From a bacterium (lineage in GTDB: Bacteria > Patescibacteriota > UBA1384 > VFKW01): a stretch of DNA of 64,000 bases. Below the pieces are notes generated by a model that was not told the origin of the DNA, ran no database searches, and worked only from the letters and a program-made list of their open reading frames with translations. The position numbers and the translations under genes are program-made. Shown piece after piece: positions 3,460 to 37,353 of this stretch (position 1 is its first letter; the number at the start of each line of letters is the position of its first letter). The stretch spans positions 512 through 64,511 of the forward strand of contig JAUSIS010000009.1 of the NCBI GenBank assembly GCA_030647355.1, read 5' to 3'.

Positions 3460-5209
3460 TTTTTTCCTTTATATCGGCTTGGGCTTTAAGCGGTGTATTT
3501 AGAATACTCTTTACTTTTTTAACAATTTCCTCTGGTAGAAAGGGCCGACCATCAAATTTTAAGAGTTTGTTAGTGATGCGTCTCCCAGTCAGAGATCTGA
3601 TATATCTGGTCATCTGACCAGAATAGTTGTTTTCGACTATCAAAGCGGCTTTAGTATGATCGAAGATCTTAGCTACTTCATATGCCGGAAAAGGCATAAC
3701 ATATAATAGGTGGAGATAGTTCGCTTTAATCCCCTCTTTGTCTAGTAATTTGAGCGCATCCAAAATAATGCTCTTATTAGATCCCCAGCCGAAGATGGTG
3801 ATTTCGGCATCTTTTTCTCCATATAAAATAGGTTCCGGCAGTTCTTTGGCTAAGTTATTAATTTTCTTCATTCTTTTTTCCATCATAGAAATGCGGATTG
3901 TCGGATCATCACTGTCACGGCCTAAAGCGTCATGCTCATAACTATCAGCATGCGTTACCGCACCTGGCGATCCGGGTAATAACCTTGAAGATACGCCATC
4001 TTCTTCTAATTCATAGCGGGAATAAGTCTCATTCCCAGAAGTTGTGATTTTTCCCCGGTCGATTTTCCATTCCGACATATCGGGTTTATTAATAGTATAT
4101 AAACTACTGGCCAGATATTTATCGGTCAGGATGATAACCGGCAGCTGGTATTTATCAGCTAAATTAAAAGCATTAAAAGTCGCCTCAATACATTCGGTCG
4201 GGTCTCCTGGCGCTAATACTATCCGAGGGAATTCTCCGTGACCGGCATAAAGGACAAAATCCAAGTCAGATTGTTCTGTCTTAGTTGGCATAGCAGAGCT
4301 CGGCCCGCTTCTCATGCCTTCAACTACCACTAAAGGAATCTCCGCCATACCAGCTAATCCCAATCCTTCAGTCATTAAGCAGAACCCTCCTCCCGAGGTG
4401 GCTGTCAGACTTCGAGCACCACTATAACTTGCACCAATAGTCATGATGATAGCAGATATTTCGTCTTCGGGTTCTTTGACAACCAGATTAAAGTTGTTTT
4501 GTTCGGCGGCTAGGTAATCGAGGATACTAGTGACAGGAGTCATTGGATAAATAGCGGCAAATTTTAAGCCGGAGCGAATTGCCCCGATACAAATCGCATC
4601 GTTTCCATTCAAGAGAATTCTTTGAGAATCTATTTGTTTGTGTTTAATTGATAAGTCAAAAGAGCTGCCGGCTCCCTGGGTAAAACGATACCCTTTGAGA
4701 GCGGCGCGAACATTCATATCAATTACTTCTTGTCCTTTTTTTTCGAAGGTTGACTTAAGAGTTTCCTCAAGAATTGAAAAATTACCTTTGAGTAATCCGA
4801 TTGCAGCGCCGATAGCGACAGTATTTCTAATAATTTCGCCGCCCGATTCTTTGGCTATAGTAGTAAGCGGAACTCCTTGAATTGTTATTCCATCCACTTT
4901 TTCAAGTTCAATGATATCAGAATCATAAATAATAGCAGAGCCTTCTTTTAGCTCGCGTTCGTGAAGTTTAACCGTTTGCTCATTTAAGGCAACCAGAATA
5001 TCAATTTTTTGGGTGAGGGAGTTAGTTTCATTTTCAGTAATATGGACCATCGCAAAATTATGCCCTCCTCTTATCAGTGAGGGATACTCGCTGGCCATAA
5101 AGGAAAAAAGACCACTGGCAAGAGCATATTTTGCTAGTAGGTGTCCGGATTCCATAATCCCGGCGCCGGCAACACCTCCAATAGCAACTACTATGTTCTG
5201 ACTTTCCAC
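3452..5209 (-). CDS. korA: 2-oxoacid:ferredoxin oxidoreductase alpha subunit with fused N-terminal gamma domain
   Basis: 585 aa; N-terminal gamma-like domain (VVAIGGVAGAG...) followed by alpha-subunit pyrimidine-binding domain; GTG start with AGGAGG SD. Confidence 0.85.
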   Translation of the reverse strand: MESQNIVVAIGGVAGAGIMESGHLLAKYALASGLFSFMASEYPSLIRGGHNFAMVHITENETNSLTQKIDILVALNEQTVKLHERELKEGSAIIYDSDIIELEKVDGITIQGVPLTTIAKESGGEIIRNTVAIGAAIGLLKGNFSILEETLKSTFEKKGQEVIDMNVRAALKGYRFTQGAGSSFDLSIKHKQIDSQRILLNGNDAICIGAIRSGLKFAAIYPMTPVTSILDYLAAEQNNFNLVVKEPEDEISAIIMTIGASYSGARSLTATSGGGFCLMTEGLGLAGMAEIPLVVVEGMRSGPSSAMPTKTEQSDLDFVLYAGHGEFPRIVLAPGDPTECIEATFNAFNLADKYQLPVIILTDKYLASSLYTINKPDMSEWKIDRGKITTSGNETYSRYELEEDGVSSRLLPGSPGAVTHADSYEHDALGRDSDDPTIRISMMEKRMKKINNLAKELPEPILYGEKDAEITIFGWGSNKSIILDALKLLDKEGIKANYLHLLYVMPFPAYEVAKIFDHTKAALIVENNYSGQMTRYIRSLTGRRITNKLLKFDGRPFLPEEIVKKVKSILNTPLKAQADIKEKND

Positions 5210-5248
5210 TAAGTCCCCTCCTTTTTTGATTTTAATCAGTTATCTTCT

Positions 5249-5638
5249 TTACTTTGGGGTCATTGCAAAATAGTAATATAGCAGGGCAGCAATAATTATA
5301 AAATTGACCACAATAATTATTATTTTAGTTTTGTGCTTTCGTTTTTCTTTTTTTACCGCTAGAGTGGCAGGATCATCTTCTTGTTTTGGCTGGGCTGGGG
5401 TTGCAACTGCCGGTTTTGATTCGGCTGGAGGACTAACGGGCGGTGGAGATTCAGTTTCTTTCGTTTCCGGTTGGCTTTTTGTTTCGACAGGATTTTCTTT
5501 GGGGGGTTCGGTTTGGGAATTAGGCGTGGGGGTTACTTCCTCGGTTGGACTACTGATAGCCCCTGGCGCAGCAGGCGTCTCGATAGATGGAATAATGAGT
5601 GATTCGGTTTTTGGTTCTTGTGTTTGATCTGGATCCAT
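5249..5638 (-). CDS. Pro/Thr/Glu-rich low-complexity protein with C-terminal TM anchor
   Basis: Starts MDPDQT; PT-rich disordered region then one hydrophobic helix; paralogous N-terminus to next gene. Confidence 0.45.
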   Translation of the reverse strand: MDPDQTQEPKTESLIIPSIETPAAPGAISSPTEEVTPTPNSQTEPPKENPVETKSQPETKETESPPPVSPPAESKPAVATPAQPKQEDDPATLAVKKEKRKHKTKIIIIVVNFIIIAALLYYYFAMTPK

Positions 5639-5669: not shown

Positions 5670-6272
5670 CTATTTAAGATTTATGTCTGGGAAGGTTGTG
5701 TTAACAGGAGTTGTGCGAGCAGCTATAACTACCATAGCGGCAATTATACCAATCGTTAGAAGAATATTTAATATGAAGATGATAAGTCCCCATTTTGCCC
5801 AGGCTTTTTGAACTGCTTTGAATTGTTCAACGCTTTCGAATTTACGGTTTTGCCAGGCCCATTCATTTCCCTTAAGACCTAAAATAACCATCATGATGGG
5901 GCCGAGGACGAAAGCTAGGAGCCCAATCCAGGTTTGATTGCCGATTGCCCATATCCAATTGAGAAAGAACGCTCCCCAGTTCCAACCTTTTATTTCTGCC
6001 GGAATATCTGTCGAGGTAGCTGGCGCTGTTCCAGTCGGAGCGGTACTCGCAGGAACCGCCTGCTCTGTGTTTGTTGTGTTCGGCTCTGGAGTAGTACCGG
6101 TTGGCGCAGGTTCGGTAGGTTTTGCAATATCCGAAACTATCGCTCCAGATGTTGCTTGCGGTTGTATGGGGGATGTTGATTCAGCTTTCACTTCTTTCGG
6201 AAAAGAAGTCGGCTCACTGGTGGGTGCCTCTATGGGTTTCTCCTCTTCGGCAGAAGTTGTTTGTGGATCCAT
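5670..6272 (-). CDS. Pro/Thr-rich N-terminal region fused to Trp-rich two-TM domain (DUF2628-like)
   Basis: Starts MDPQTT; C-terminal block GWNWGAFFLNWIWAIGNQTW...KGNEWAWQNRKF with two TM helices. Confidence 0.5.
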   Translation of the reverse strand: MDPQTTSAEEEKPIEAPTSEPTSFPKEVKAESTSPIQPQATSGAIVSDIAKPTEPAPTGTTPEPNTTNTEQAVPASTAPTGTAPATSTDIPAEIKGWNWGAFFLNWIWAIGNQTWIGLLAFVLGPIMMVILGLKGNEWAWQNRKFESVEQFKAVQKAWAKWGLIIFILNILLTIGIIAAMVVIAARTTPVNTTFPDINLK

Positions 6273-7374: not shown

Positions 7375-8445
7375 TCACCGGGTCTGTCGTTGCTTGATTC
7401 CCTCGATGCACTTATCGAGGGGCATCTTGCGACCGATCAGCTGGCTAAGGTAGTAGAGGTAGGGATAGCCTGATATTGCAGGATCATCCGAGTTTTCGGT
7501 TTCCAGGAAGATACCGCCCCGAGCAAGTAGTTTCTGAACTATCCTGATATTGCGATAGCTTTCCACTACTCCCTTTTCCTGGGCTCGGCGCAAGGCCATA
7601 TCAACCGGCATTCCCTCGGCTAGGTATTGGCCGAATGCCGTGTTCCGGCTGATATTGCCCGGTTGCTGGCAAAGTAAGAGGTCTGCCATGAGCGTCATCT
7701 TCTCGTCAGAGCCATCTTGGCGAGTTTGCCGCTTTGTCCCCAGGACTTTCAGCAGACGCCAGTACTCATCGTATATACCCGCCATCGCTGTGGCATAACT
7801 ACCGAGCTCACCTGATAGGCAATGCTGGACGATGGACGTTTCGCAGGAGGTAATGGTCCGGAGGAAACCTCCATAGCACATTCCGGTCGGATCCAAGCTC
7901 AACCGCCCCCAGATCTTTGTTCCTGTGAATAGATCCCGGAAGCGCTTGGCAGAATCCCAGCTTCTCTTGCCAGATGCGATTATCATACGTGTCCATTCAC
8001 CGGCTGCCATATTCTCACCGAAGCCGGCGCCGGTATACTGGATAATATGCGCCAGCGGAAAGTGATGGCGAACAACCTGGAACGGCGTCTCGAGATTGTC
8101 GTTCAATCCCTTCTGCATAGTCACCAGGGTAGCCGTCTTCTCGTTGAGATTATCGATGAGTTGTAAGGTCGGTTCAAGCCCCGCCATTGAAGGGGCTAGC
8201 AGTATATAGTCGTAACCGTTTGCATTGATACGGTCACTGGTGACTATAGCCAGTCCATCCGGTGTATCATAGTCTTGCATCCAAGGGTATCGACTGCAGT
8301 AGTCGAATGTCTGCCAGCTGTCCATCATCCTACGATCAATATCCCAAATGGACGTAGGGACACCGGCTTGCTTGGTCAAGACCATTGCTGTGCCGAAACC
8401 GAAGGTACCGGCACCGAGGATGAGGATTCTGGGCTGCTCAGTCAT
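7375..8445 (-). CDS. gpsA: NAD(P)H-dependent glycerol-3-phosphate dehydrogenase-like protein
   Basis: N-terminal Rossmann ILILGAGTFGFGTAMVL, C-terminal GpsA-like helical domain; high GC; ATGA overlap with plsY fusion gene. Confidence 0.6.
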   Translation of the reverse strand: MTEQPRILILGAGTFGFGTAMVLTKQAGVPTSIWDIDRRMMDSWQTFDYCSRYPWMQDYDTPDGLAIVTSDRINANGYDYILLAPSMAGLEPTLQLIDNLNEKTATLVTMQKGLNDNLETPFQVVRHHFPLAHIIQYTGAGFGENMAAGEWTRMIIASGKRSWDSAKRFRDLFTGTKIWGRLSLDPTGMCYGGFLRTITSCETSIVQHCLSGELGSYATAMAGIYDEYWRLLKVLGTKRQTRQDGSDEKMTLMADLLLCQQPGNISRNTAFGQYLAEGMPVDMALRRAQEKGVVESYRNIRIVQKLLARGGIFLETENSDDPAISGYPYLYYLSQLIGRKMPLDKCIEGIKQRQTR

Positions 8446-10166
8446 TTCACACCTCCAGGAAGATCGGCGGCGGCGAGGAAGGCTCGAAAACGAGAATCGG
8501 TAAGCGGCTCATCGAACTGCCGTCTGCCAACTACCCGGAAGCCATGTTGGTCAGCCAGTTCGGAGAGATAATCCAGCCATTCTGGAGAAATCCCATCTGA
8601 GATGGAATATACTCCGTTTTTACGACCAGCCAATCCCAGCAGAAATGTTTCGGTCATACAGCCAAACAGCGTACCGGGACGGAAGCCGAAGTTGAATGTC
8701 TGGTCTAACACCTCGGGCGCTGCGACAATCCCACCATCTATAACCAAGAGGGACTGGCGCCTATCAACCTCTCTGGCAATGTCGCGCGGGCGAGCCAGGT
8801 CAATGATGATAGACCCGCGTTGGAAGTCTTCGCTTTCGATCTTCAGTCCACCAATTGCACTGGTGACTGTGACAAAAAGCTTAGAGCTTTTCAGCGCCTC
8901 ACTTAGCGTTACTACCCGAGCGTTGGTCAGTTGATACCGTCTTATGAACGGCTCTAGATCGGCCTGATGCTTGACCAGCAGCAGTTCCTTGACATGTGGC
9001 GCCAGGAGAATTGCTACCGACTTACCCACAGAACCGACTCCAACGATGGCAACTGATTCCCGGGAGAGATCATAACCGGCCTTCCCGACGATCGCCATGA
9101 ATGCTTCGACACCGCTGACGGATGTGTAGCCGTTGCCAGTAGTTATGGCGAGTCTGTCCTTGAACGTATCGCCGATAACCTTGCCGCCTTCACCGGCAAT
9201 CGAGGTATAGCCGCCGAGGCCAACAACCGCGCATCCCTGCATTTCCAGGTACCCAACGGCTTTGGTGATAACTGGTACTGTTTTGCAAGAGGGCCACTTT
9301 TTGAGCTCGCTGGCAGTGAGAGGCACTCCATGGAAGATCATCTCGATAACTTGTCCGGTTCGACTGCGGATAGTGATTCTACCCATTGAGTAGAAAACAA
9401 CCGGGATCGCTCGACGAAGGACATTGAAGACAAACCGAGCCGGCAGGTATTTCATGAACTTAAACTTCTGGGAGGCTTTCTCTTTGAAGAACTTCGGATC
9501 GTTTGTTGTGTTGACAACAAATCCCATCCGGAGAACACCAGGGCGAGGCGGTTTCTTTGCCCACTTCTTTTTTGTTAAGTCTTCCCAGATCGTTGGTTCC
9601 TTTCCTGCCCACAGTCGCTTGATGTTGGAGTGATGCTTGAGGATGATGAGCAAGGAAAAGATAGACAGCGGCACAGAAATCCAGTGGCTTGGCTCGAAGA
9701 GGAGAGAAAGCAGAGCCAGAGCAAGGGCAGCGATGATTGTGGCAAGTGACACATAGCCCCCTAGGATCAGGGCAACTAGCCAGATGCCAAAGACAATGAA
9801 GCCCAGAGCAGGGTTCACTCCAAAGACAACGCCAAGCGAGGTAGCGGCGGCTTTGCCGCCTTTGAACTTGAGGAATACCGAGCAGAAATGCCCGAGGATT
9901 GCCATGCCCCCAACTAAGATAATACCATCAGGAAGAGCATGACAAAGACGGTAGATAACAACCGGCAGAAGACCTTTCGTCACGTCGAGAAAGAAGGTCG
10001 CGATCCCCCAAGGTACCCAACCAATAACTCGACCGACATTGGTGGCGCCGATGTTTCCGCTTCCCATCTTCATGAGATTTACCCCTTTGGCCTTACAGAT
10101 CCAGACTCCAAAGGGAAGAGAACCGATGAAGTACGATACGATGCTGAACGCTATCAGCAGTTTCAT
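8442..10166 (-). CDS. plsY: glycerol-3-phosphate acyltransferase PlsY fused to C-terminal acyl-ACP reductase (AAR)-like NAD(P)-binding dehydrogenase domain
   Basis: N-terminal 200 aa: 5 TM helices and PlsY signature GSGNIGATN. C-terminal 370 aa: GLGGYTSIAGEG...ITTGNGYTS...AIVGVGSVGKS...IDGG...FGCMTETFLLGLAG aligns by eye to cyanobacterial AAR blocks including catalytic Cys. Confidence 0.7.
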   Translation of the reverse strand: MKLLIAFSIVSYFIGSLPFGVWICKAKGVNLMKMGSGNIGATNVGRVIGWVPWGIATFFLDVTKGLLPVVIYRLCHALPDGIILVGGMAILGHFCSVFLKFKGGKAAATSLGVVFGVNPALGFIVFGIWLVALILGGYVSLATIIAALALALLSLLFEPSHWISVPLSIFSLLIILKHHSNIKRLWAGKEPTIWEDLTKKKWAKKPPRPGVLRMGFVVNTTNDPKFFKEKASQKFKFMKYLPARFVFNVLRRAIPVVFYSMGRITIRSRTGQVIEMIFHGVPLTASELKKWPSCKTVPVITKAVGYLEMQGCAVVGLGGYTSIAGEGGKVIGDTFKDRLAITTGNGYTSVSGVEAFMAIVGKAGYDLSRESVAIVGVGSVGKSVAILLAPHVKELLLVKHQADLEPFIRRYQLTNARVVTLSEALKSSKLFVTVTSAIGGLKIESEDFQRGSIIIDLARPRDIAREVDRRQSLLVIDGGIVAAPEVLDQTFNFGFRPGTLFGCMTETFLLGLAGRKNGVYSISDGISPEWLDYLSELADQHGFRVVGRRQFDEPLTDSRFRAFLAAADLPGGVK

Positions 10167-10246
10167 TTTGTGCCCCTCCTTAAGGTGCTAGTTTGATATA
10201 AATATGTTAAGGTAATGTCTACCTGTAATGCTGACATTATATCTTC

Positions 10247-10300
10247 TCGTCTCAAAAAGAGCAACCCTCACTAAGGTGCCAAGCGAGGGTTGCTCTTTTT
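10247..10300 (-). terminator. terminator (bidirectional-looking) after PRTase gene
   Basis: AGAGCAACCCTC...GAGGGTTGCTCT 12-bp stem flanked by A-run and T-run. Confidence 0.6.
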
Positions 10301-10306
10301 ATTTAA

Positions 10307-12004: not shown

Positions 12005-14863
12005 TTGACAATCAAGGCAAAACCAGAAAAGACGGGAACGAAAAAGGTAAAGCGCCGTAGGATAACGACTATCTACGTGCGCACCAACAGCGATCCCGAG
12101 GCGATTAGTCTGTTGAAAGACCTTAAGAGCCAAGGATATTTGCTGGACGACTTGAGAATTGAGCATGTCTACCGCGTAGAGGGCACGGCGCAGGCGAGCG
12201 ATCTGCTCCCGATGTTTGCCAATCCCCTGTACCAGATGTTCGATCGCAAGACGATGCTCACCGACAATGAAGGGCCGATCGTCGAGATTGGCTATCAGCG
12301 GGCAGTAACCGATCCGGAGAAGCATAGCGCTCTCGATGGCGCGAAGGCTCTTGGGATCGAAGGTGTTGATTGGGTGCGTTTGAGTAAACGCTATCAGTTC
12401 ATCGGCGCAACACCAGCGGAAGCAGAGCGTATCGCCAGAGAGCAGCTCTACAACCCAATCATCCAGGCAGTCATTGATCCTGCCAAGCCGTGGGAGTCAC
12501 TGAAGCCAAGCGGGAAGCCCGATCCGATCAGGCGTATCAGCTTGAAGGGTATGACAGGCAAACGACTCATCAAGCTGAGCGAAGACAACTCCTGGTATGC
12601 GCCGTTGTCGCAGTTGAAAGCATTGCAGGCCTACGAACACAAGATCGGCCGGCCACTGACTGACGCAGAGATTGAAATCACAGTACAATCGTGGTCCGAT
12701 CACTGCTATCACACGACTTGGCGCGGCTTGGGCCTGCTAGAGAAACTGCAGGCGGCGACAGCGCGGATCAACCATCCGCTGGTCGTATCGGTATTCCATG
12801 ACAATGCCGGAGCTATGCGACTTGGACCGAATGGGGATCAAGTAGTACTCATTAAAGGCGAGACGCACAACTTCCCGTCGGCTATTGCTACTTTCGGCGG
12901 AGTCGCTACCAAGCACGGCGGAGTCATTCGTGACGCGATCGGTTTCGGTCGGGGCGGTTATCCGATCGGCGGCTCGACAATCATGGGCACGATGGATCCG
13001 CGCACAGCGATGGCGGATGTGCCGAAAGGCGCTCTCCATCCACGCAAGATCCTTGTTGAGTCCATTCAGGCAACAGGTTATTACTGCAACCCGATGGGCA
13101 TTCCCATGATGAAGCCGGCATACTATATACATCCCGGATTTCCCAAGTGTTTGGCGCTCGGTCACACGCTAGGGATAATCCCGTATATGTATGCGCTGAA
13201 GGAGGATCCCAAGCCCGGCGACAAGGTAGTGCTGTTCGGAGGCCTGACGGGACGGGACGGAGTGCATGGCGCAACTGCCAGTTCGGCAGCCATGACTTCC
13301 GAAACTCTCACCAAGGACAAGGCGGCGGTGCAAATCGGATTGCCAATCATCGAGCGTAAGTTCATGACGGCAGTTCCCGAATGGCGCGACCGTAGTTGCC
13401 TAAGGTCAATCACTGATCTGGGAGCCGGCGGTATCTCGTGTGCCGTCGGCGAGCTCGGGAAGCGAGGGGTCAAGATCCATTCGGATCGTGTGCCCCTCAA
13501 AGACAGTAGCTTGTCTCCCTGGGAGATCCTGCTATCAGAATCCCAGGAGAGAATGCTGGCGGCTGTGCCGCCCGAGAAGATAGATGAATTCATCGAGATC
13601 GCGGAGAAGTACGATATTCAGTACACGATCCTCGGCGAATTCAACGACAGTGGGAAGTATTCCGTCTTCCATGGTGACGAGCAGTTCGTTGATTTGGACA
13701 TGAACTTCCTCTGGAAGCAATGTCCAATTGACAATGTCATCGTGGAGCCGGCAATACGACCGTATGTCGAATTGAATATTGACGAGCCGACGACTGCAGA
13801 CGAGTGGCGAGCAGCGGCAATTGAGCTGCTTCGACACTGGCATTGCTGCGATCAATCGGCGGCCGGTACTCAATTCGATTCGACAGTCCAGGGGCAAACG
13901 GTTGTCGGACCGTACGGGGGAGCGCATGGAGACATGCCAACCGGAGCGACGGTGCTGGCACCGCTCGAGGATGCATTCGACGGAGTAGCGTTCTCCATTG
14001 CCTATCACCCGTATTACGGAGATCTCGATCCGGCCGGAATGGCGAGATTGGCCGTAATAGAAGCCATCGCCAAGCTGATATCGGCCGGAGTTCCTTTAAG
14101 CCAAATTGGACTTTGCGATAACTTCTACGCTCCCAAGATTCGACCGGATGTTGCGGCTGATCTAGTTGGAGTAGTGGATGTAATCTGCGAAGCTTCCGAG
14201 GTCTTTGGGACACCGTTCATCTCCGGTAAGGACTCGAGCTCGGGGACATTCAAAGCCGATGACGGAACCCTGATTGACGTGCCCTTCAGTCTGGTAGTTG
14301 CCGGCATGGGAATTCTGCCGGATGTGCGAAAGACGGTCACATCGGAGTTCAAGGAAGCAGGCAACCAGCTTATCTATGTGGGAGCGTGCTGGCCGAACAA
14401 GAGATTTCTCGGTGCATCTACTTATGCTGTCATGGAAGATAAGAAAGGCGGTCGGCTGCCGAGAGATGGGACCTTATCCGAGCACAAGACGACATTCGAG
14501 GCGATTCATGAGCTGATGGAGAGAGGTCTTGTCCGTTCTGCTTCCGCCATGACAAGCGGCGGCATCTGGGCAAGTATCTTCAAGTCATGCTTGGGATCGG
14601 ATCTCGGTGCTGAGCTGACTCTCAACCAGATCAGCGATCAGTTGTCAGCTCCTTTGTTCGGAGAAGCGCCAGGCGGTTTCATTCTGGAATTCGATCAGAA
14701 GACCGACGCTAAAGTACTAATGGGCTTAGACTGGTGTGAGATAGGCACAGTTACCCAAGATCCAGTCGTTCGAGTACTCTGGCGGGGTGAAGAGAAGTTC
14801 CAGGCGACAGTTGAAGAGCTGGCGAAAGAATGGCGCCAGCCGTTTGCGGAGGTGATCGGATGA
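12005..14863 (+). CDS. purL: phosphoribosylformylglycinamidine synthase PurS-PurL fusion (FGAM synthase II with N-terminal PurS-like repeats)
   Basis: 952 aa; TTG start with AAGGAG SD; two PurS-like segments in first 200 aa, then PurL motifs SDHCYH, GETHNFPSAIATFGG; high GC. Confidence 0.85.
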   Translation: MTIKAKPEKTGTKKVKRRRITTIYVRTNSDPEAISLLKDLKSQGYLLDDLRIEHVYRVEGTAQASDLLPMFANPLYQMFDRKTMLTDNEGPIVEIGYQRAVTDPEKHSALDGAKALGIEGVDWVRLSKRYQFIGATPAEAERIAREQLYNPIIQAVIDPAKPWESLKPSGKPDPIRRISLKGMTGKRLIKLSEDNSWYAPLSQLKALQAYEHKIGRPLTDAEIEITVQSWSDHCYHTTWRGLGLLEKLQAATARINHPLVVSVFHDNAGAMRLGPNGDQVVLIKGETHNFPSAIATFGGVATKHGGVIRDAIGFGRGGYPIGGSTIMGTMDPRTAMADVPKGALHPRKILVESIQATGYYCNPMGIPMMKPAYYIHPGFPKCLALGHTLGIIPYMYALKEDPKPGDKVVLFGGLTGRDGVHGATASSAAMTSETLTKDKAAVQIGLPIIERKFMTAVPEWRDRSCLRSITDLGAGGISCAVGELGKRGVKIHSDRVPLKDSSLSPWEILLSESQERMLAAVPPEKIDEFIEIAEKYDIQYTILGEFNDSGKYSVFHGDEQFVDLDMNFLWKQCPIDNVIVEPAIRPYVELNIDEPTTADEWRAAAIELLRHWHCCDQSAAGTQFDSTVQGQTVVGPYGGAHGDMPTGATVLAPLEDAFDGVAFSIAYHPYYGDLDPAGMARLAVIEAIAKLISAGVPLSQIGLCDNFYAPKIRPDVAADLVGVVDVICEASEVFGTPFISGKDSSSGTFKADDGTLIDVPFSLVVAGMGILPDVRKTVTSEFKEAGNQLIYVGACWPNKRFLGASTYAVMEDKKGGRLPRDGTLSEHKTTFEAIHELMERGLVRSASAMTSGGIWASIFKSCLGSDLGAELTLNQISDQLSAPLFGEAPGGFILEFDQKTDAKVLMGLDWCEIGTVTQDPVVRVLWRGEEKFQATVEELAKEWRQPFAEVIG

Positions 14864-15609
14864 GAAACCTCATCAAGAAAGTGGCGATCCTCTGCGGACC
14901 CGGCACCAATTGCCACGCCGAGACGGCGCGGGCCCTCCGGCTGGTCGGTCTGGATAGCGCGATCGTACAGATCAGCGAGATCCTGAACGGTCAGGTCAGA
15001 CTGAACGACTACTGGGCACTCGTCATTCCCGGCGGATTTTCCTGGGGAGACCACTTCGGATCGGGGCGGATATTTGCCCTTTTCCTGAGACGATTCCAGG
15101 ACGATCTCCGCCAGATGGTCGAGGGTGATTCGCCTATCCTGGGGATATGCAACGGTTTCCAGGTGTTGACGGAAACAGGATTACTGCCCGATCTGACAAT
15201 CGGTGAGCCAAAAGTGGCACTTGTGACCAACGCATTGGCTCGGTTTGAGAGCCGATCGGTTGATCTGTGGGTTCCCGAAACCAAGAGTTTCTGGACCAAG
15301 GGTCTTGGCGGTTCAGTTCTCCGCCGGTTGCCGGTAGCCCACGGCGAAGGAAACCCATTCATCCCAACCGGGACGGATATATTGCCCGGAGTATTCTACG
15401 CCAAGGATGGCAAACCGACCACCGAGTATCCTTTCTGCCCCAATGGTTCCCCGGGCGGTATAGCGGGACTCATTGATAGCAAGAAGAAGCTGGTGTTCGG
15501 CCTGATGCCGCATCCCGAGCGGGCATGCCGCCAAGGCGTTCATCCTTCAAGCGACGGATTGAAGATCTTCCAGAATCTGGCGGATTACCTGAACAGTCGT
15601 CCTCTGTAG
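14860..15609 (+). CDS. purQ: phosphoribosylformylglycinamidine synthase glutaminase subunit
   Basis: ATGA overlap with purL; class I glutamine amidotransferase GICNGFQ catalytic Cys and HPE motif MPHPERA. Confidence 0.85.
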   Translation: MRNLIKKVAILCGPGTNCHAETARALRLVGLDSAIVQISEILNGQVRLNDYWALVIPGGFSWGDHFGSGRIFALFLRRFQDDLRQMVEGDSPILGICNGFQVLTETGLLPDLTIGEPKVALVTNALARFESRSVDLWVPETKSFWTKGLGGSVLRRLPVAHGEGNPFIPTGTDILPGVFYAKDGKPTTEYPFCPNGSPGGIAGLIDSKKKLVFGLMPHPERACRQGVHPSSDGLKIFQNLADYLNSRPL

Positions 15610-17379: not shown

Positions 17380-17961
17380 TTGTTAAGGGAATACAAATAC
17401 CTACTGCCCACAGAGGAAGCAGATGTTCTTACGGGCTTGATACTACTCGATGTGCTGCGGCGGATACCAGCCAAGCGCATCACAGTTGACGAACAACATA
17501 CTCGGGTCATGGATATCGCCCATGCGATTGAGAACTTGAGTGCCTTCAAGAAGCCAACTTCAAAGATGAAGCTCAAGGCAGTCCAGGGTGTTGCCAGCAG
17601 GGCGATTCGCCAGATTAGCGAGGCAGCAGGACGTCTGGCGAAGGAGACCACTGGCGACAAGTGGGAACGGGAGACTGCTTTCACTGAATATCGAGTGCAA
17701 CTTCGGGCGGCGCTGGTTTCACGGTTGATTCTGATTCGGACACACGATGGCATGGAACAATGGCGACTGGCGAGGGAGGCAGCGATCAAGATTGCGTTGA
17801 AGAAGGCCGGTGTTGCTGCGGCGTATGTGGTCGGAGCGGCTGCTGTTCTGATTGTAGCCAATGCGTTTCGAGGCGAAGACCTCGAGAAAGCGCATGCGAG
17901 AGGTGTCCGCAAGAGAGATGCGATCGAGCATGCCCGTCTTGACGCCCAGAATAAGAAGTGA
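17380..17961 (+). CDS. hypothetical protein with C-terminal hydrophobic helix (high GC)
   Basis: TTG start with GAGGGAG SD; the overlapping antisense ORF 17346..17972 has Ala/Arg/Ser-biased composition typical of an artefact. Confidence 0.45.
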   Translation: MLREYKYLLPTEEADVLTGLILLDVLRRIPAKRITVDEQHTRVMDIAHAIENLSAFKKPTSKMKLKAVQGVASRAIRQISEAAGRLAKETTGDKWERETAFTEYRVQLRAALVSRLILIRTHDGMEQWRLAREAAIKIALKKAGVAAAYVVGAAAVLIVANAFRGEDLEKAHARGVRKRDAIEHARLDAQNKK

Positions 17962-18950: not shown

Positions 18951-20036
18951 TCAGGAGTTGGTGATGGAGCCGCCGGCTGCCAGCCATTGCTGGCCTTGTA
19001 TCGTTGACACCCACGATCGCCCCTTGCCGTACTTGCCACTGACGGGCTTGCTCTCCGTGCATAGCGGGCATTCGGAATCTACCCAGGATTCCATCGCTAT
19101 CTTGACTAGCGCGCTTAGCGATACTCCACACAGGTCGTCAGAGGTGACTCCGCCACGATCAGCGATGACCGAAAGGCCGATAATCTCGGCGATTTCCTGG
19201 ATCGCTACGATCATTCTCTTGGCAGAACCGCCCGTGGTGGTGATGTCCTCGATTAGGCCGACTTTCTGACCCTCGATTTTCGACCGGAACGGTCCAAGGT
19301 CCATGGGGACATCGCGGGCGATTTGCCTGTCGAACTCCGTATAGACGGCTTTCACGGGCCGATTTCCCACGATTGAGAGATAGTCAGCGAATCCATGGGC
19401 AATCGGAATACCGGCGCCTGGAGGAGAAACGACTATCTCAACTTCACGCTCCAGGAATCGTTGGGCTTGTTGGAAGACTCCGATGGCCTTTGGGTATTCA
19501 CTGGTGATTGCCCAATCTAATCCGGTGAAGCAACCGTTGGCTATGTCAAAGATATCAACAATGCCGACGATGTTTCCTGGATTAGCGCGGAGAACCGTTT
19601 CCGTTGTTCTTCGCTCTCTTCTGAAGCCTTCAATGATTAGCACCCGATGGCCGGCGATGTCTTCATCGAACCCGCGCTTGAGGATTATGGGATCTGTATC
19701 TGTCCCCTCATAGCGCGGCTGGACGAAGGCAGCATTGACCGGGCGCTTCTCAACTCGGGAAATGTGGCGAGCAACGCCATGAGCAAAAGCGATACCACCT
19801 TCCGCCGGGCCGACGATTGTTGCCACTCCCGTTCCAAGGAACGGCTGTGCAAGTCCCCCATAGAAGGCTAGTACATCCGGATACAACCGGCCGATCGCAT
19901 CCTTATTGATATAGCGATCGGAATGCCGCCATACTCCGTCGGCCTTGGGGGTAAGAGCGAAGTGCCCTTCGAGCAGCGAGCCGGATTTCTTCAGTCCTTC
20001 TGAATAATCAGTTTGGTCTTTCTGCAAGTTTTTCAC
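18951..20036 (-). CDS. internally duplicated type I phosphoribosyltransferase (OPRT-like); N-terminal copy lacks PRPP loop, C-terminal copy intact; likely TTG start at 20018
   Basis: N-half: LKKSGSLLEGHFALTPKADG (OPRT-like hood) but RVLIIEGFRRERRT instead of a PRPP loop. C-half: KVGLIEDITTTGGSAKRMI canonical PRPP motif. C-terminal CPLC cysteine pair. Confidence 0.6.
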   Translation of the reverse strand: MKNLQKDQTDYSEGLKKSGSLLEGHFALTPKADGVWRHSDRYINKDAIGRLYPDVLAFYGGLAQPFLGTGVATIVGPAEGGIAFAHGVARHISRVEKRPVNAAFVQPRYEGTDTDPIILKRGFDEDIAGHRVLIIEGFRRERRTTETVLRANPGNIVGIVDIFDIANGCFTGLDWAITSEYPKAIGVFQQAQRFLEREVEIVVSPPGAGIPIAHGFADYLSIVGNRPVKAVYTEFDRQIARDVPMDLGPFRSKIEGQKVGLIEDITTTGGSAKRMIVAIQEIAEIIGLSVIADRGGVTSDDLCGVSLSALVKIAMESWVDSECPLCTESKPVSGKYGKGRSWVSTIQGQQWLAAGGSITNS

Positions 20037-20078: not shown

Positions 20079-20831
20079 TCATCCGCGCTGGATGAGCTGG
20101 CGGGTCATCTCCTGGGCGTTGAGCGCCATCTGGCGAGGCGAAGCAAGGATGCCTTTCGCCTTTTCGTAGACACCCGATCCGATGATCGGGGTGAAGTACG
20201 GACCGGCGACCTTTGCCGTTTCCGAGATGACACCCAACTGATCAATGAACCCGGGAGCCCACAGGCGGAAGAACCGCCCTCTGGGTACCAGACCGTCAAT
20301 CAGATCGAAGTACTTCTTGACGAATTCGACCTTGTTGCCCGGAACGACGAAGTTCCTCACTCCCAGCCCGACGGCGAGCCGGAAGATGCGCTCGGGAGCG
20401 TCATCGGCGATATAGCCGCCCTCGCAGACGAGGAATTGCGCGTGCGTCATGTGAGCACCCACGAGAACTTCCAGCCCGGCTTCCCGACAGGCTTCTGTCC
20501 ATGCTATCTGGGTTGTTGGGCCAGCCAGCGGGAAGAGAATAACTTCATCCACTCCCGCCGCCTTGAGCATCTTGGCGAACTTGACGCCCATCTGCGGAAT
20601 GTCGGTGCCCGCCTTCTGGTGATCGTAGACGATCGGCTTGTTGGTTATTGCCTTGATCCGGCCGACCTTGCGCTTGAGTCCTTCGTTGCCACCGGACAGC
20701 GTAATGCCGACTTTGAAGGCGGAAACACCGGGAACTTGGTGCGTCGCCTTGACGAGGACTGTCACTTCTTCCGATTCCACATCGCAAGCGATTGCGATTC
20801 CATTTGGACCTACTAACGGTACTGTTGCCAT
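20079..20831 (-). CDS. orotidine 5'-phosphate decarboxylase-like protein (OMPDC suprafamily); start taken at internal Met with AAGGAAG SD
   Basis: FKVGITL...IVYDHQKAGTDIPQMG (D-x-x-K-x-x-x-D variant of DxKxxD), VVPGNK and IIGSGVY blocks resemble PyrF. Confidence 0.55.
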   Translation of the reverse strand: MATVPLVGPNGIAIACDVESEEVTVLVKATHQVPGVSAFKVGITLSGGNEGLKRKVGRIKAITNKPIVYDHQKAGTDIPQMGVKFAKMLKAAGVDEVILFPLAGPTTQIAWTEACREAGLEVLVGAHMTHAQFLVCEGGYIADDAPERIFRLAVGLGVRNFVVPGNKVEFVKKYFDLIDGLVPRGRFFRLWAPGFIDQLGVISETAKVAGPYFTPIIGSGVYEKAKGILASPRQMALNAQEMTRQLIQRG

Positions 20832-21064
20832 AGTTTTTTCTTCCTTCGTTGTGTATTTGGACTTGCGGTAATACAATGGCGACTAGACTTCACCTCCAGG
20901 TGTCCGCATTGGAAAGCGGTAGATTGTATGGTACAAACCAATTCCAAAATTTGAAACTGGTTATTGTGAAGCGATTATATCTTAAGATTATAGGAAAAGC
21001 AAGGCGATGGAGCTAATATTGACTATGGGCATAAGGAAAGTTAAGCTAGAATCAAAGGAGGAAA

Positions 21065-23032: not shown

Positions 23033-23067
23033 GGGAATAAAAAGAGGGCTCGGATGGTTACGAGCCC
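23033..23067 (-). terminator. terminator overlapping tyrA stop codon
   Basis: GGGCTCG gatggtta CGAGCCC with T-run on minus strand. Confidence 0.55.
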
Positions 23068-24137
23068 TTGATGATGGTGAGTTCGGTGCTTTGGCTGATT
23101 CGATCCATGGCCGACTGCACTTCAGCAGACTCTGTGTTCTGCTGAAGTCCGAGCCGAAACCTGAATCCGCTCCCAGATGGATAGGAGAAGATCGAAGTCA
23201 GGTTAACGCCTGTCTCGCTTAGGATAGTTAGCGGCTGTACCAGGAGCCCAGGGAGGTCTTGTGTTGCCTCCAAAGTTACCTTGTACTCATGCGACCAGTC
23301 GGCAACTATACGGTTCAAATCCTGGAAGAGGTCGTATCCGTCCTGAATTACCGGCGCCGTGAAATGCTCACGGCTGGCGGTGAATTCATTGATGAAGCTG
23401 TCCCTGTCACCGGACTTGACAATCTCATACAGGTGTTGGACCGCTTGAACAAACGCATCCAAGACCTTGACTGTGGCTGGGTTGCACATCTGAATGTCAC
23501 AGTAAAGCTCGGGGTCTTGACGAAGAAGCCTTCCCATGAGGCTCTGCGATATACGGTAGAATGGGCTGGTGTAAGTGAGACTATCAGCCACATCAACACC
23601 AATTTCCCGTAAGACAGCCGCCGATGCCATCTGGTTGAAATGAGGCATCGCCTGGACAAAAGCCATCATGAGATCGTGGTCTACCGGATTGGCCATCTTG
23701 ACCTTGGCTTGCAGCCTCGTGAGCACTTCAAGCATCCAAGCGTTCCACCAGTCAGAACAGGGTTCTGTCAGGCAGGTGACTACTGTCTGACCATGCAAGT
23801 TGGTCGTAGGAGGGGCGCACATTGGGTGCAGCCCAACCACATTTGCTTCTGATTTGAGCATTGACTCCACTTGAAGTTCTTTCAATGAAGTAACGTCAAA
23901 CCAGAATTGAGTAGGACGGGCATATGGCACAACTTGCTCGATTACTTCACAGGTGACTCTCGGCGGTACCGAGAAGATCACCACATCGGATCGTTCGACG
24001 ACATCCCGATTGCTTAGATGGCTTTCCAAGATGTCAGACCCTATAACAGGGTAGCCCATCTGTTTGAATACCCGTTCGAGCCATTGACCATATCTGCCAC
24101 GAAGGCCAATGATACCGATGATGAGGTTTCTTTCCAA
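23058..24137 (-). CDS. tyrA: prephenate dehydrogenase with C-terminal ACT domain
   Basis: N-terminal Rossmann IIGIIGLRGRYG, PDH helical domain, C-terminal ACT-like 70 aa. Confidence 0.75.
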   Translation of the reverse strand: MERNLIIGIIGLRGRYGQWLERVFKQMGYPVIGSDILESHLSNRDVVERSDVVIFSVPPRVTCEVIEQVVPYARPTQFWFDVTSLKELQVESMLKSEANVVGLHPMCAPPTTNLHGQTVVTCLTEPCSDWWNAWMLEVLTRLQAKVKMANPVDHDLMMAFVQAMPHFNQMASAAVLREIGVDVADSLTYTSPFYRISQSLMGRLLRQDPELYCDIQMCNPATVKVLDAFVQAVQHLYEIVKSGDRDSFINEFTASREHFTAPVIQDGYDLFQDLNRIVADWSHEYKVTLEATQDLPGLLVQPLTILSETGVNLTSIFSYPSGSGFRFRLGLQQNTESAEVQSAMDRISQSTELTIIKGS

Positions 24138-24409: not shown

Positions 24410-24892
24410 ATGACCGTAGAAACCCTGTATGACCAGCTTGACGAAATCGCTAAGCTCCCAAAGGAACAGCACCGAGAGGCGGCTCAACCCATCATTGACG
24501 GTATTATCGCGGGGCTGAATTCGTCAGACATCGGTGCAATAAGCCAGGCATCGGCAGCGATCAATCATGAAGTAATGAGCGGGGATGATGGCCTTTTCGG
24601 CGATGAGGTCGGCAAGGACATGATAGTCAACTGCGTCATCGCCCGCGCATTTGTGCAAGCACTTCAGGCGCAGACCGATCGTCGGCTTCGGGCAGAAATC
24701 ATCGAGAGTGCCTGGGAATTCGTTGACAACAACTTTCCCGGTGATGAGGCGGCACCCGAGCTGTACACTGCACTCCAGCAAGCCGCACGGAGCACTGAAG
24801 GAGAAGCTCTCGAGTATGCCAAGAAAGCGATCAAGATACTCGAGGAAGACTACCCTGAACTGCTGGCAGCGAATCCTGAACCCGGGGATTAG
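24410..24892 (+). CDS. acidic hypothetical protein
   Basis: GGAGGT SD; no recognizable domain. Confidence 0.45.
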   Translation: MTVETLYDQLDEIAKLPKEQHREAAQPIIDGIIAGLNSSDIGAISQASAAINHEVMSGDDGLFGDEVGKDMIVNCVIARAFVQALQAQTDRRLRAEIIESAWEFVDNNFPGDEAAPELYTALQQAARSTEGEALEYAKKAIKILEEDYPELLAANPEPGD

Positions 24893-25640: not shown

Positions 25641-26408
25641 CTAGCCTTTGACGCCAGCTGCTTGGGCGACAATGAAGACCTTCTGAATGAACTCTAGCAG
25701 AAAGCGTTCGCGGCGGGTGAAGTAGATTACCTTCTGCGTCGGAACACACTTGCCAGCTTCCAGGGCGCGCGCAATCATTTCCAGAGCGCGTATTTGCACC
25801 CGATGCTCCACGGGCAGAAGCCGTTGCTGAAGCTCATTGGCTTTCTCGTTCTTATCAACAGGTATGCCCTCACAGTGGATTATGGCTCCGCTATCGTACT
25901 GACCACCGACGAGTTGAGCGGTGGCAACGGTCTCCAATTCCCGCTTGACAAGCTGGGAGAGGACAACCATAGCGATGTGCGGCCAGATGCCGAAGAAGCT
26001 TTTTCCACCAACGCCGTTGGTTAAGGCGGGGTGCTGATTGACTCCCCAGTACTTCTCCAAGACATTCTCCGGCGTCTTCGGCAGCCAGCCATATTGTCCG
26101 AAGAGGTCAATCTTGAATTCGTCAAAGATTGCAATGAGCGCCCGGCCGAAAGCCACTTTGTCTTTGCCGTAGTCCTCCGGGTTGCAGGTACGGATGCAGT
26201 CTTTGGGGAATCCGGCGGCGATCAGCTTCTGTTTGGCGCCGGCACTGGGGTCGCTGATGACAACACAGACGACCTCAATCAAGCCGTGTAGGATTCCTGT
26301 AGCCAGTGTGGCCATGAAGACTGCCAAGGCGGTGGTGCCGCCGCCGGAAGCCAGGATAACCAGACGAAGTGGCAGCTTCTTGCGCAGGATTCGTTTCGTA
26401 AGATTCAT
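25641..26408 (-). CDS. formyltransferase family protein (PurN-like, N-terminally extended)
   Basis: RLVILASGGGT N-terminal motif and NQHPALTNG (cf. NIHPSLLP) block. Confidence 0.55.
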   Translation of the reverse strand: MNLTKRILRKKLPLRLVILASGGGTTALAVFMATLATGILHGLIEVVCVVISDPSAGAKQKLIAAGFPKDCIRTCNPEDYGKDKVAFGRALIAIFDEFKIDLFGQYGWLPKTPENVLEKYWGVNQHPALTNGVGGKSFFGIWPHIAMVVLSQLVKRELETVATAQLVGGQYDSGAIIHCEGIPVDKNEKANELQQRLLPVEHRVQIRALEMIARALEAGKCVPTQKVIYFTRRERFLLEFIQKVFIVAQAAGVKG

Positions 26409-26612: not shown

Positions 26613-27068
26613 TTATTGCTCATCCTTTTCTGGTCCACCCTCGTTGTTTTCCCGTTTCAGGCATGCTATTTCGTCTTTCTTGAAACGCATGCGGCCGAGT
26701 ATCCGCTGGATGATGAAGATGGCTTCGAATTTGCTCATCGCATCCGTTGTATAATCCACAAAGACCATGATCGGTTGCGATATGACTATGAGGGCAGTCC
26801 AGGTGATCGGCACGTCCAGCCAATTATGCGTAACATGGACCGTTTGCCTTGAACATAGCTGCACTACGATCGCCACCCAGTGGGAGAAGCAGTAATGACA
26901 CTTGATAAGCTCAAGGTAGTCCTTGGCTGGGGTATTGCCGAACTTATCGGTCAGCCAAACACGAAATGCTTTGAATATTCGGGTACGGGTGACATCATAG
27001 CTGATGATCGCTACGAGCGTGCTTAGCGTAAGCAGCTGCAGGAAACTCAAATCAATCGCCTCCTCCAT
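26613..27068 (-). CDS. DUF1360 family membrane protein
   Basis: KCHYCFSHW motif with flanking TM helices. Confidence 0.5.
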   Translation of the reverse strand: MEEAIDLSFLQLLTLSTLVAIISYDVTRTRIFKAFRVWLTDKFGNTPAKDYLELIKCHYCFSHWVAIVVQLCSRQTVHVTHNWLDVPITWTALIVISQPIMVFVDYTTDAMSKFEAIFIIQRILGRMRFKKDEIACLKRENNEGGPEKDEQ

Positions 27069-37287: not shown

Positions 37288-37353
37288 ATAAAAACACAAA
37301 AAGCGCCTAGAGAAATCCGGGCGCTTTTTGTAAAATAATCACTTGGTGGAGCT
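37288..37353. repeat. 66-bp direct repeat copy 2 (contains tmRNA 3' end and its terminator)
   Basis: See copy 1; overlaps last 10 nt of ssrA (AGCTCCACCA on minus strand). Confidence 0.85.

Follow-up and report, generated by a model that had tools for sequence, protein, structure and literature searches.

We analysed a 64-kb stretch of DNA (64,000 nucleotides, hereafter the window) from contig JAUSIS010000009.1 of assembly GCA_030647355.1, a genome of the Patescibacteriota, a group of ultra-small bacteria. It encodes a protein in which the acyltransferase PlsY is fused to a domain that, by profile and fold comparison, is homologous to acyl-ACP (acyl carrier protein) reductase (AAR). The gene is followed by one resembling gpsA, with which it shares 4 bp (ATGA). 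The linkage of plsY with the AAR-like domain, in several lineages together with the gpsA-like gene, is old and conserved, either as a fusion or as abutting genes. PlsY requires acyl-phosphate, and the only known suppliers of this substrate are PlsX, which makes it from acyl-ACP, and FakAB, a fatty acid kinase. We propose, with moderate confidence, that the AAR-like domain supplies acyl groups to PlsY through an acyl-S-cysteine intermediate and would therefore be a functional analogue of PlsX. The combination itself, its conservation in fused and split forms, the distinct gpsA-like partner and the occurrence in Patescibacteria appear to be undescribed; the component families are known. Our full-text literature searches found no paper describing a PlsY-AAR-like architecture. 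The main elements are the following.

8442..10166, minus strand: fusion gene encoding PlsY, a short basic linker and the AAR-like domain (574 aa, a single uninterrupted open reading frame (ORF), modelled with AlphaFold2)
9582..10166, minus strand: PlsY domain, with the acyl-phosphate:glycerol-3-phosphate acyltransferase fold (aa 1-195)
9543..9581, minus strand: Lys/Arg-rich linker DLTKKKWAKKPPR (aa 196-208, 13 residues), with the lowest predicted local distance difference test (pLDDT) values of the model, 68-75
8469..9542, minus strand: domain with the fold shared by AAR, the N-terminal part of PigE and the terminal amidation domain (TAD) (aa ~209-566), from profile, PDB-sequence and Foldseek matches
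7375..8445, minus strand: gpsA-like gene (356 aa), of a distinct subfamily of the NAD(P)-dependent glycerol-3-phosphate dehydrogenase family

The C-terminal domain is best matched by reductase profiles. Residues ~258-562 of the fusion match positions 47-352 of NF053554 (PigE) with E 8e-44 and 150 bits, below the full-length cut-off of 850 bits; the fusion is without the class-III aminotransferase domain. The AAR profile TIGR04058 gives E 4.5e-20 and 72.2 bits against an equivalog cut-off of 449.7. Judged by these scores, the domain is a homologue of AAR and no equivalog. Comparison with PDB sequences retrieved PigE (4ppm, E 2e-28) and AAR (6jzq, E 2.5e-13), with the catalytic cysteine aligned in both: the motif FGCMTE of the fusion aligns with GCMAE around Cys296 of PigE (PMC8341465) and with FACFAE around Cys294 of AAR (PMC7089970). 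The AlphaFold2 model, for which 24 fusion sequences were used, reaches a mean pLDDT of 89.7 and a predicted template modelling score (pTM) of 0.80, and dips only at the linker. Foldseek searches of the PDB with this model gave as top groups AAR (6jzz, template modelling (TM) score 0.80, E 1e-15), the TAD (9e56, TM score ~0.70) and Aquifex PlsY (TM score 0.91), and nothing specific beyond these three. The predicted model has the three-subdomain fold of AAR. The original prediction had assigned the fusion by eye from a series of sequence blocks, and all of them are in the translation (GSGNIGATN, GLGGYTSIAGEG, ITTGNGYTS, AIVGVGSVGKS, IDGG, FGCMTETFLLGLAG and DQHGF); with the profile matches of both halves and the model, the fusion is real.

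Public annotations of such fusions read simply PlsY or, for two of them at JGI, 'fatty aldehyde-generating acyl-ACP reductase'. Close stand-alone relatives of the domain are labelled 'shikimate dehydrogenase' at NCBI. There are indeed weak matches to PF01488 (Shikimate_DH, 24.1 bits against a cut-off of 24.3, aa 366-473) and to the hemA profile TIGR01035 (23.6 bits against 209.55, E 2e-5), but these touch only the Rossmann part. One could hence suspect a misassigned shikimate dehydrogenase or glutamyl-tRNA reductase (GluTR), or else a chimeric assembly or a missed stop or frameshift, given that the GC content of the gene pair is atypical for the contig. We consider all of this extremely improbable. 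Matches to the AAR and PigE models are better by 15-40 orders of magnitude, AAR heads the fold matches and the cysteine is conserved, which rules out the first two identities. A second, independent assembly, from Logan (run SRR13727527), contains an identical fusion gene, about 25 divergent clusters of fusions exist, the fusion is one ORF in the 9 distinct lineages checked at the DNA level, and the GC content at third codon positions (GC3) is alike in the two halves (0.59 and 0.56). No stop or frameshift separates the domains. Pfam and NCBIfam scans of the fusion protein gave no match to PlsX, DegV or Dak2. Hence, any PlsX-like role would be one of analogy only.

The N-terminal domain has the sequence of an active PlsY. 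It matches PF02660 (E 2e-44, 151.9 bits against a cut-off of 24.1) and exceeds the equivalog cut-off of TIGR00023 (152.6 against 137.2 bits). The model superposes on Aquifex PlsY (5XJ5) with a TM score of 0.91 and a root-mean-square deviation of 1.6 Å over 193 columns, at 38% identity. It shows the seven transmembrane helices of the PlsY fold (PMC5700162), where the original prediction had counted five. Three motifs hold most of the active site.

10038..10064, minus strand: PlsY motif 1, GSGNIGATN (aa 35-43, with S36, T42 and N43), from the alignment of 24 fusions
9846..9863, minus strand: PlsY loop KGGKAA (aa 102-107), the 'phosphate hole' for acyl-phosphate plus the clamp residue K105, a role taken from Lys104-Ala107 of Aquifex aeolicus PlsY (aaPlsY)
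9624..9635, minus strand: PlsY motif 3, HHSN (H178...N181), from the alignment of 24 fusions

The invariant or nearly invariant PlsY positions among the 24 fusions are S36 (24/24), T42 (21/24), N43 (23/24), R46, K64, G104 (24/24), K105 (23/24), H178 and N181 (both 24/24). In aaPlsY, the phosphate of glycerol-3-phosphate (G3P) is clamped by Ser35, Arg45, Lys104 and Asn180, His177 and Asn180 position G3P, and Thr41 contacts the carbonyl of acyl-phosphate (PMC5700162). The conserved set matches this clamp, His177 and the acyl-phosphate contacts: the window protein carries the counterparts S36, R46, K105, N181, H178 and T42, each kept in 21-24 of the 24 fusions. PlsY is thus complete and, as far as its active-site residues tell, catalytically intact. 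Since the sites for both substrates are conserved, PlsY should still need acyl-phosphate and G3P. We considered that PlsY might be a mere membrane anchor and rejected this, because its active-site residues are invariant.

The conserved positions of the AAR-like domain are centred on the predicted nucleophile and on the dinucleotide-binding loop.

8658..8660, minus strand: codon of Cys503, the predicted acyl-accepting nucleophile, aligned with AAR Cys294 and PigE Cys296
9024..9041, minus strand: dinucleotide-binding loop GVGSVG (G376, G378, G381), invariant in the 24 fusions and aligned with 162-GATGDIG-168 of AAR
8784..8792, minus strand: R459-P460-R461 beside the active site, with Y247-P248-K249 as the AAR counterpart

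Cys503 is invariant among all 109 AAR-like domains compared. Within the 24 fusions, F216, G344, T348, G376, G378, G381, P460 and C503 are invariant or nearly so, and the catalytic cysteine and GxGxxG motif already recognized by eye are without exception. All residues conserved in reductases are kept (C503, G376/378/381, T348, E506, D456 and P460), and most fusions also keep a basic residue after strand beta-2, at the ribose-phosphate site of AAR. In AAR, this cleft accommodates NADPH as well as the ADP part of acyl-coenzyme A (acyl-CoA) (PMC7089970). As both ligands share it, the GxGxxG loop and the basic residue after beta-2 cannot discriminate a reductase from a transacylase. Positions separating the PlsY-linked clade from proven reductases show only weak enrichment (G262, R461 and R549). 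P460 is found in 24/24 fusions, R459 in 20/24 and R461 in 18/24, and the position of R461 is a proline in most reductase-type multidomain relatives. We had entertained the RPR triplet as a phosphate site. It is missing from one fusion subclade and present in stand-alone relatives, and the idea is therefore not supported.

The same residues would suit an ordinary NAD(P)H-dependent thioester reductase, releasing fatty aldehyde beside PlsY either for ether or vinyl-ether lipids (alkyl- or alkenyl-glycerol-phosphate) or as a drain for surplus acyl groups. Together with the complete reductase set and the basic residue after beta-2, the best sequence and fold matches (AAR and the reductase domain of PigE) and the JGI label of two fusions point this way, and ElbD, a myxobacterial reductase-acyltransferase, is an architectural precedent. 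Yet the acyl-phosphate and G3P sites of PlsY are fully conserved, an aldehyde is no substrate of PlsY, and no chemistry is known that would join an aldehyde to G3P in this enzyme. The usual downstream enzymes, i.e. aldehyde-deformylating oxygenase (ADO), an aminotransferase or an alcohol-forming reductase, are not linked at these loci. In particular, the gene tables of the window and of those related loci that have one list no ADO or ferritin-like gene beside the fusion. The lipids of a size fraction enriched in Candidate Phyla Radiation (CPR) bacteria were all acylglycerols (PMC7242380). On this evidence we find a reductase unlikely. If the domain were nevertheless a true reductase, it would mark an unrecognised aldehyde- or ether-linked lipid pathway.

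A mainly regulatory or structural role, in which a module sensing NAD(P)(H) or acyl-CoA gates PlsY, is less probable still. By the positive-inside rule, the basic linker would place the C-terminal domain in the cytoplasm, directly after the PlsY active-site helix, and the N-terminal subdomain of the AAR-like part begins ~25 residues past this last active-site helix (H178/N181). This tight tethering and the conserved nucleotide-binding cleft would fit such a sensor, and PlsY stands at the committed step of phospholipid synthesis (PMC5700162), where regulation is expected. However, the invariance of the cysteine at only 25-38% identity, along with T348, E506 and D456, argues for catalysis, and split forms keep the AAR-like gene as a separate protein of enzyme size.

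To assess the distribution of the fusion in sequence databases, 1.84 billion representative sequences were scanned exhaustively with HMMER, the full-length fusion protein serving as query. This revealed at least 25 clusters (50% identity) of full-length fusions of 565-629 aa that align end to end at 25-38% identity. The impression of a singleton fusion, given by a word-indexed search with the C-terminal domain, was thereby overturned; a word-indexed search with the profile of 24 fusions gave 3 fusions and otherwise mostly plain PlsY proteins. Separate AAR-like genes of the same clade start exactly at the domain boundary of the fusion. In three metagenomic lineages they abut plsY: in L150/L151 a 203-aa plsY stops 1 nt ahead of a 369-aa AAR-like gene, in L152 the plsY (partial), AAR-like and gpsA-like genes overlap by 4 and 8 nt, and L116 has the same split trio. 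The survey of related lineages suggested by the original prediction has thus returned both recurrent fusions and split forms. One fusion is in a Candidatus Berkelbacteria metagenome-assembled genome (MAG; L007). About 2 kb downstream of it lies a 310-aa ORF (4597-5529, minus strand) that, by eye, from a PGHGGxxDRxD-type motif, may be CdsA-like (phosphatidate cytidylyltransferase). It would then be a second phospholipid-pathway neighbour of the fusion.

In a rough neighbour-joining (NJ) tree, PlsY-linked domains stand apart from the AAR of Synechococcus elongatus, from PigE and the reductases linked to aminotransferases or to nonribosomal peptide synthetases (NRPS), and from a large stand-alone clade. 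The latter, which comes from Armatimonadota and other phyla and bears the NCBI label 'shikimate dehydrogenase', is not found beside plsY. Its loci (L009-L035 and L097-L135, many of them in MAGs labelled Armatimonadota) have an apparently conserved housekeeping neighbourhood, with genes named by eye as Dus-like (19 loci), CoaX-like (15), BirA-like (6) and LysRS-like (6), and Translin-like, MerR and CsrA genes in the Pfam tables. These neighbourhoods gave no functional clue. One stand-alone protein of the PlsY-linked clade itself, P0047, is encoded in an uncultured Candidatus Saccharibacteria MAG (L008, CAYOQP010000005, 5929-7116), with no plsY within 6 kb. Hence, the AAR-like domain may also work unlinked in CPR genomes.

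PlsY was also found fused to other partners (P0195, P0202, P0283, P0286, P0287, P0190 and P0198), with the Pfam domains PF01210/PF07479, PF01926, PF01871, PF01300 and PF13664. We take the first pair to be GpsA domains and the next three to be a GTPase, AMMECR1 and Sua5/YciO/YrdC, respectively. Fusions with PF13664 are many and include proteins named from Gemmataceae. Several PlsY proteins of 565-613 aa have C-terminal halves without a Pfam match that are not AAR-like.

The gpsA-like gene was the sole recurrent neighbour specific to PlsY-linked loci in an unsupervised clustering of neighbours. In 7 lineages (the window, L087/88, L089, L139, L143, L116 and L152) it is the next gene downstream. 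Its junction and the region ahead of the fusion gene are as follows.

8442..8456, minus strand: translational-coupling junction, with GGAGG at 8452-8456 followed by ATGA at 8442-8445, read from the sequence
10167..10306, minus strand: AT-rich region 5' of the fusion gene, from a visual reading of the sequence
7858..7860, minus strand: R196 of the gpsA-like protein, in the subfamily signature LRT, invariant in 7 partners, where canonical GpsA has K-N
7642..7650, minus strand: S266-R267-N268 of the gpsA-like protein, invariant in 7 partners and aligned with SRN of 3k96

The junction reads GGAGGTGTGAAATGA, with the ATG of the gpsA-like gene at 8445..8443 and the TGA of the fusion gene at 8444..8442. 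The GGAGG, a Shine-Dalgarno-like site, lies inside the 3' end of the fusion gene, 6 nt before the gpsA-like start. The overlap and coupling proposed in the original prediction are therefore present, and the linkage recurs in distant relatives. Upstream of the fusion gene, visual reading gave the hairpin terminating the preceding gene (~10254-10297), TATAAT at 10236-10241, and AGGAGG at 10175-10180, 8 nt ahead of the ATG. The promoter is a visual call only, and the output of a consensus promoter and terminator scan lists none for the fusion gene. With these upstream signals and the coupled junction, the pair looks like a separate two-gene operon.

The gpsA-like protein matches PF01210 (48.6 bits against 23.1) and PF07479 (28.7 against 25), but scores below the NCBIfam cut-offs for GpsA (best NF000940, 73.6 bits against 202). 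A profile of 7 partner proteins nevertheless matches the solved GpsA 3k96 over its full length (positions 6-352, E 1.7e-24) and 1txg (E 1.2e-16). Invariant in the 7 partners are the GxGxxG motif, Q111-K112, R196-T197, D255, S266-R267-N268 and V294-E295. The SRN motif of the family presumably binds the substrate phosphate. In the alignment, R196-T197 takes the place of KN in GpsA of Coxiella and Archaeoglobus. By these alignments, the gpsA-like proteins are a distinct subfamily of the glycerol-3-phosphate dehydrogenase family.

That a GpsA-like enzyme, which consumes NAD(P)H, is repeatedly linked to the domain could also be explained if the domain ran backwards, in the manner of glyceraldehyde-3-phosphate dehydrogenase or aspartate-semialdehyde dehydrogenase. 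Fatty aldehyde and NAD(P)+ would give acyl-S-Cys, phosphate would release acyl-phosphate, and the NAD(P)H would be used by the GpsA-like enzyme to turn dihydroxyacetone phosphate into G3P, which makes the sequence redox-neutral. This would account at once for the cysteine, the nicotinamide site, the acyl-phosphate need of PlsY and the gpsA-like neighbour, and the chemistry of phosphorylating aldehyde dehydrogenases is established in other enzymes. However, these organisms have no known plausible bulk supply of fatty aldehyde, there is no precedent for this direction in the AAR-like family, and 3-4 fusion lineages have no adjacent gpsA-like gene. We therefore think a backward reaction quite improbable.

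The named close relatives of the threonyl-tRNA synthetase (ThrRS) of the window are all Patescibacteria (Parcubacteria, Liptonbacteria, Niyogibacteria, Paceibacterota and Buchananbacteria). Neither plsX, fab, acpP, fakA/fakB, plsC nor an acyl-CoA synthetase gene is among the annotated genes of the window. The lipid metabolism of CPR bacteria and Patescibacteria is an acknowledged gap, with ester-lipid membranes and no fatty acid synthesis. In Nealsonbacteria, PlsY was reported together with PlsC, while PlsX and ACP-related enzymes were missing, and the origin of their acyl-phosphate was posed as a question (Probst et al. 2020, PMC7242380).

Returning to the acyl-supply proposal, the three activities would form a lysophosphatidic-acid module. 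The GpsA-like enzyme would make G3P. An acyl chain would be bound to Cys503 in thioester linkage, with acyl-CoA or acyl-ACP as the most plausible source and the ADP or pantetheine part of this donor occupying the Rossmann cleft as in AAR. The acyl group on Cys503 would then be exchanged with phosphate, and the acyl-phosphate passed to the adjacent site of PlsY. Cleaving a thioester with phosphate is slightly unfavourable, as it also is for PlsX and Pta, and PlsY would draw the reaction forward. In the alternative direction, acyl-phosphate would be taken from the PlsY site to make a thioester for PlsC. In this way the AAR-like domain would do the work of PlsX without being its homologue, in a lineage from which PlsX and ACP are often absent. 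Several precedents are consistent with parts of this scheme. AAR forms acyl-S-Cys spontaneously from acyl-CoA, and its product leaves by an acyl tunnel; N-terminal residues form the exit of this tunnel, which docks on the next enzyme (PMC7089970). PigE and GluTR are thought to channel similarly (PMC8341465). For the TAD, a non-reductive acyl transfer from the same cysteine to a small nucleophile has been proposed (preprint 10.1101/2024.10.28.620694). PlsY carrying a FakB-like acyl-phosphate carrier at its C-terminus already exists (PMC5700162), showing that an acyl-phosphate supplier can be fused to this end of the protein.

The phosphorolysis hand-off is the least certain step of the scheme. 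We put forward only tentatively its full consequence, i.e. that the AAR-fold domain represents a new class of acyl-phosphate-forming (or acyl-phosphate:thiol transacylating) enzymes in which the acyl-S-Cys is resolved by phosphate and not by hydride. Several points weigh against the scheme. We know of no member of the AAR/GluTR/TAD superfamily that phosphorolyses its acyl-enzyme. The PlsY-linked clade keeps every residue conserved in proven reductases and has no invariant phosphate-site signature of its own, with RPR in 18-20 of the 24 fusions and also in stand-alone relatives. No source of acyl-CoA or acyl-ACP was identified in the 64-kb window, which is also the extent of the absence of PlsX, ACP and FakAB. 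Most of the other fusion-bearing contigs are without taxonomy. A gpsA-like gene does not follow the fusion in the 3-4 lineages mentioned above, and where it does, the replacement of the K-N pair of the aligned solved GpsA by R-T means that the substrate of the partner is not certain.

If the domain does make or use acyl-phosphate, this would be new chemistry for the superfamily and a new entry into bacterial phospholipid synthesis. It would replace PlsX or FakAB without homology to either and form, with the GpsA-like partner, a self-contained lysophosphatidate module. It would also explain how phospholipid synthesis starts in Patescibacteria that have PlsY but neither PlsX nor ACP. The conserved fusion, or tight gene pair, is a concrete and clonable candidate for the missing acyl-phosphate step.

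The pair differs in composition from its immediate neighbours. The fusion gene has a GC content of 0.52 and a GC3 of 0.57, the gpsA-like gene of 0.53 and 0.61, whereas GC3 is 0.32-0.39 in the immediate neighbours. The pair had been described as about 55% GC in a 36% GC genome. It is indeed GC-richer (52-53%), but the window mean is 42.6%, with roughly 34-44% in most flanking and low-GC3 genes, and the composition is common to many neighbouring genes. At least 13 genes at 7375-32036 have a GC3 of 0.57-0.69, whereas the remaining genes of the window range over ~0.28-0.47 (mostly 0.30-0.39). Besides the pair, at least 11 of them lie between 12 and 32 kb, interleaved with low-GC genes.

12005-14863: high-GC3 purL
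14830-15609: high-GC3 purQ
17380-17961: high-GC3 gene
18951-20036: high-GC3 phosphoribosyltransferase-like gene (faint Pfam match)
20079-20876: high-GC3 gene
23058-24137: high-GC3 prephenate dehydrogenase gene
24410-24892: high-GC3 gene
25641-26408: high-GC3 gene with Formyl_trans_N, read as purN
26613-27068: high-GC3 gene
28281-29102: high-GC3 short-chain dehydrogenase/reductase (SDR) gene
31164-32036: high-GC3 gene

The pair looks like part of a mosaic of genes, mostly metabolic, that entered a low-GC Patescibacteria genome by horizontal transfer. Its uniform composition suggests that it was probably acquired as an already fused unit. A close donor is not known, as the most similar relatives reach no more than 38% identity.

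Other features of the window deserve mention. A tmRNA gene (37344-37724, minus strand) has a predicted 22-residue tag peptide, ANTFISRVKTAFAGMTFAPAFA, and smpB is elsewhere in the window (a PF01668 gene, L002). At 38346-39029 (plus strand), a 227-aa protein joins an N-terminal XRE-type HTH_3 domain to a C-terminal HSP20/alpha-crystallin domain, a combination that is not known to have been described. Just after a tRNA-Val, an alpha/beta-hydrolase is encoded at 39383-40168 (plus strand; best Pfam match Hydrolase_4). We take this family to include lysophospholipases and monoglyceride lipases, and it is a speculation that the enzyme could free fatty acids from scavenged lipids. Large envelope-related proteins are encoded at 41840-44254 (plus strand; 804 aa, LPG_synthase_TM and DUF2079), 54520-57420 (minus strand; 966 aa, Acyl_transf_3) and 52463-54523 (minus strand; 686 aa, Big_5 and Peptidase_C39_2). 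The adjacent genes at 5249-5638 and 5670-6272 (both minus strand) encode proteins of no Pfam family, with long low-complexity N-termini rich in Pro, Thr, Glu and Ser and hydrophobic, anchor-like C-terminal segments.

Among known systems, AAR of Synechococcus elongatus (PDB 6JZQ, 6JZU, 6JZY and 6JZZ; TIGR04058) is the closest in fold. It shares the three-subdomain architecture and has Cys294 at the place of C503, and its GxGxxG loop, T134, D244, P248 and E297 all have equivalents in the fusion. The acyl-S-Cys intermediate and the passing of a lipid product to a partner enzyme are further features of AAR (PMC7089970). In contrast, the two are only ~21% identical and belong to different clades of the rough NJ tree, AAR Y247 and K249 are R459 and R461 in the fusion, and the partner of AAR is ADO, of the alkane pathway, instead of PlsY and a GpsA-like protein. 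The N-terminal thioester-reductase domain of PigE (4PPM; NF053554), from the prodiginine and tambjamine reductase-aminotransferases, is the best sequence match, has Cys296 aligned and is likewise a reductase-type domain in one chain with the enzyme that receives its product. However, that enzyme is a pyridoxal phosphate (PLP)-dependent aminotransferase consuming an aldehyde, whereas PlsY consumes acyl-phosphate. In ElbD, a myxobacterial multidomain ether-lipid enzyme (acyl ligase-ACP-reductase-acyltransferase), a fatty-acyl reductase is joined to a glycerol-phosphate-type acyltransferase. Its reductase is of SDR type, its acyltransferase of PlsC type, it has its own ligase and carrier domains, and it is not known to have any sequence relationship to the fusion.

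The TAD of CarI (carmabin; PDB 9E4S-9E56) has an AAR-like fold and an invariant cysteine beside a bound dinucleotide. Its authors propose the transfer of the acyl group from the cysteine to ammonia (preprint 10.1101/2024.10.28.620694), the nearest precedent for a transfer to phosphate, although this chemistry is itself a proposal. Unlike the fusion, the TAD ends NRPS modules; it binds NAD and not NADP, its N-terminal subdomain is strongly diverged from that of AAR, and its sequence match to the fusion is weak (E 1e-5). PlsX (acyl-ACP:phosphate transacylase) and FakA/FakB would share with the AAR-like domain the role of delivering acyl-phosphate to PlsY at the membrane. They have no homology to it, and the mechanism proposed here is covalent cysteine catalysis, which to our knowledge PlsX does not use.

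The two partners of the domain also have known counterparts. Aquifex aeolicus PlsY (5XJ5-5XJ9) has all the substrate-binding residues found in the fusion, but canonical PlsY, at ~200 aa, is without the ~370-aa cytoplasmic C-terminal domain. GpsA of Coxiella (3K96) and Archaeoglobus (1TXG) has the GxGxxG, KG lysine, Asp, SRN and VE motifs that are kept in the GpsA-like partner, and differs from it by the K-N pair, an invariant R-T (LRT) in the partner, and by the NCBIfam scores. Genomic linkage of gpsA to plsY is common, and PlsY-GpsA fusions exist (P0195, P0202 and P0283). A direct architectural precedent for the fusion of an acyl-phosphate supplier is provided by the PlsY proteins fused at their C-terminus to the FakB-like DegV domain (PMC5700162).

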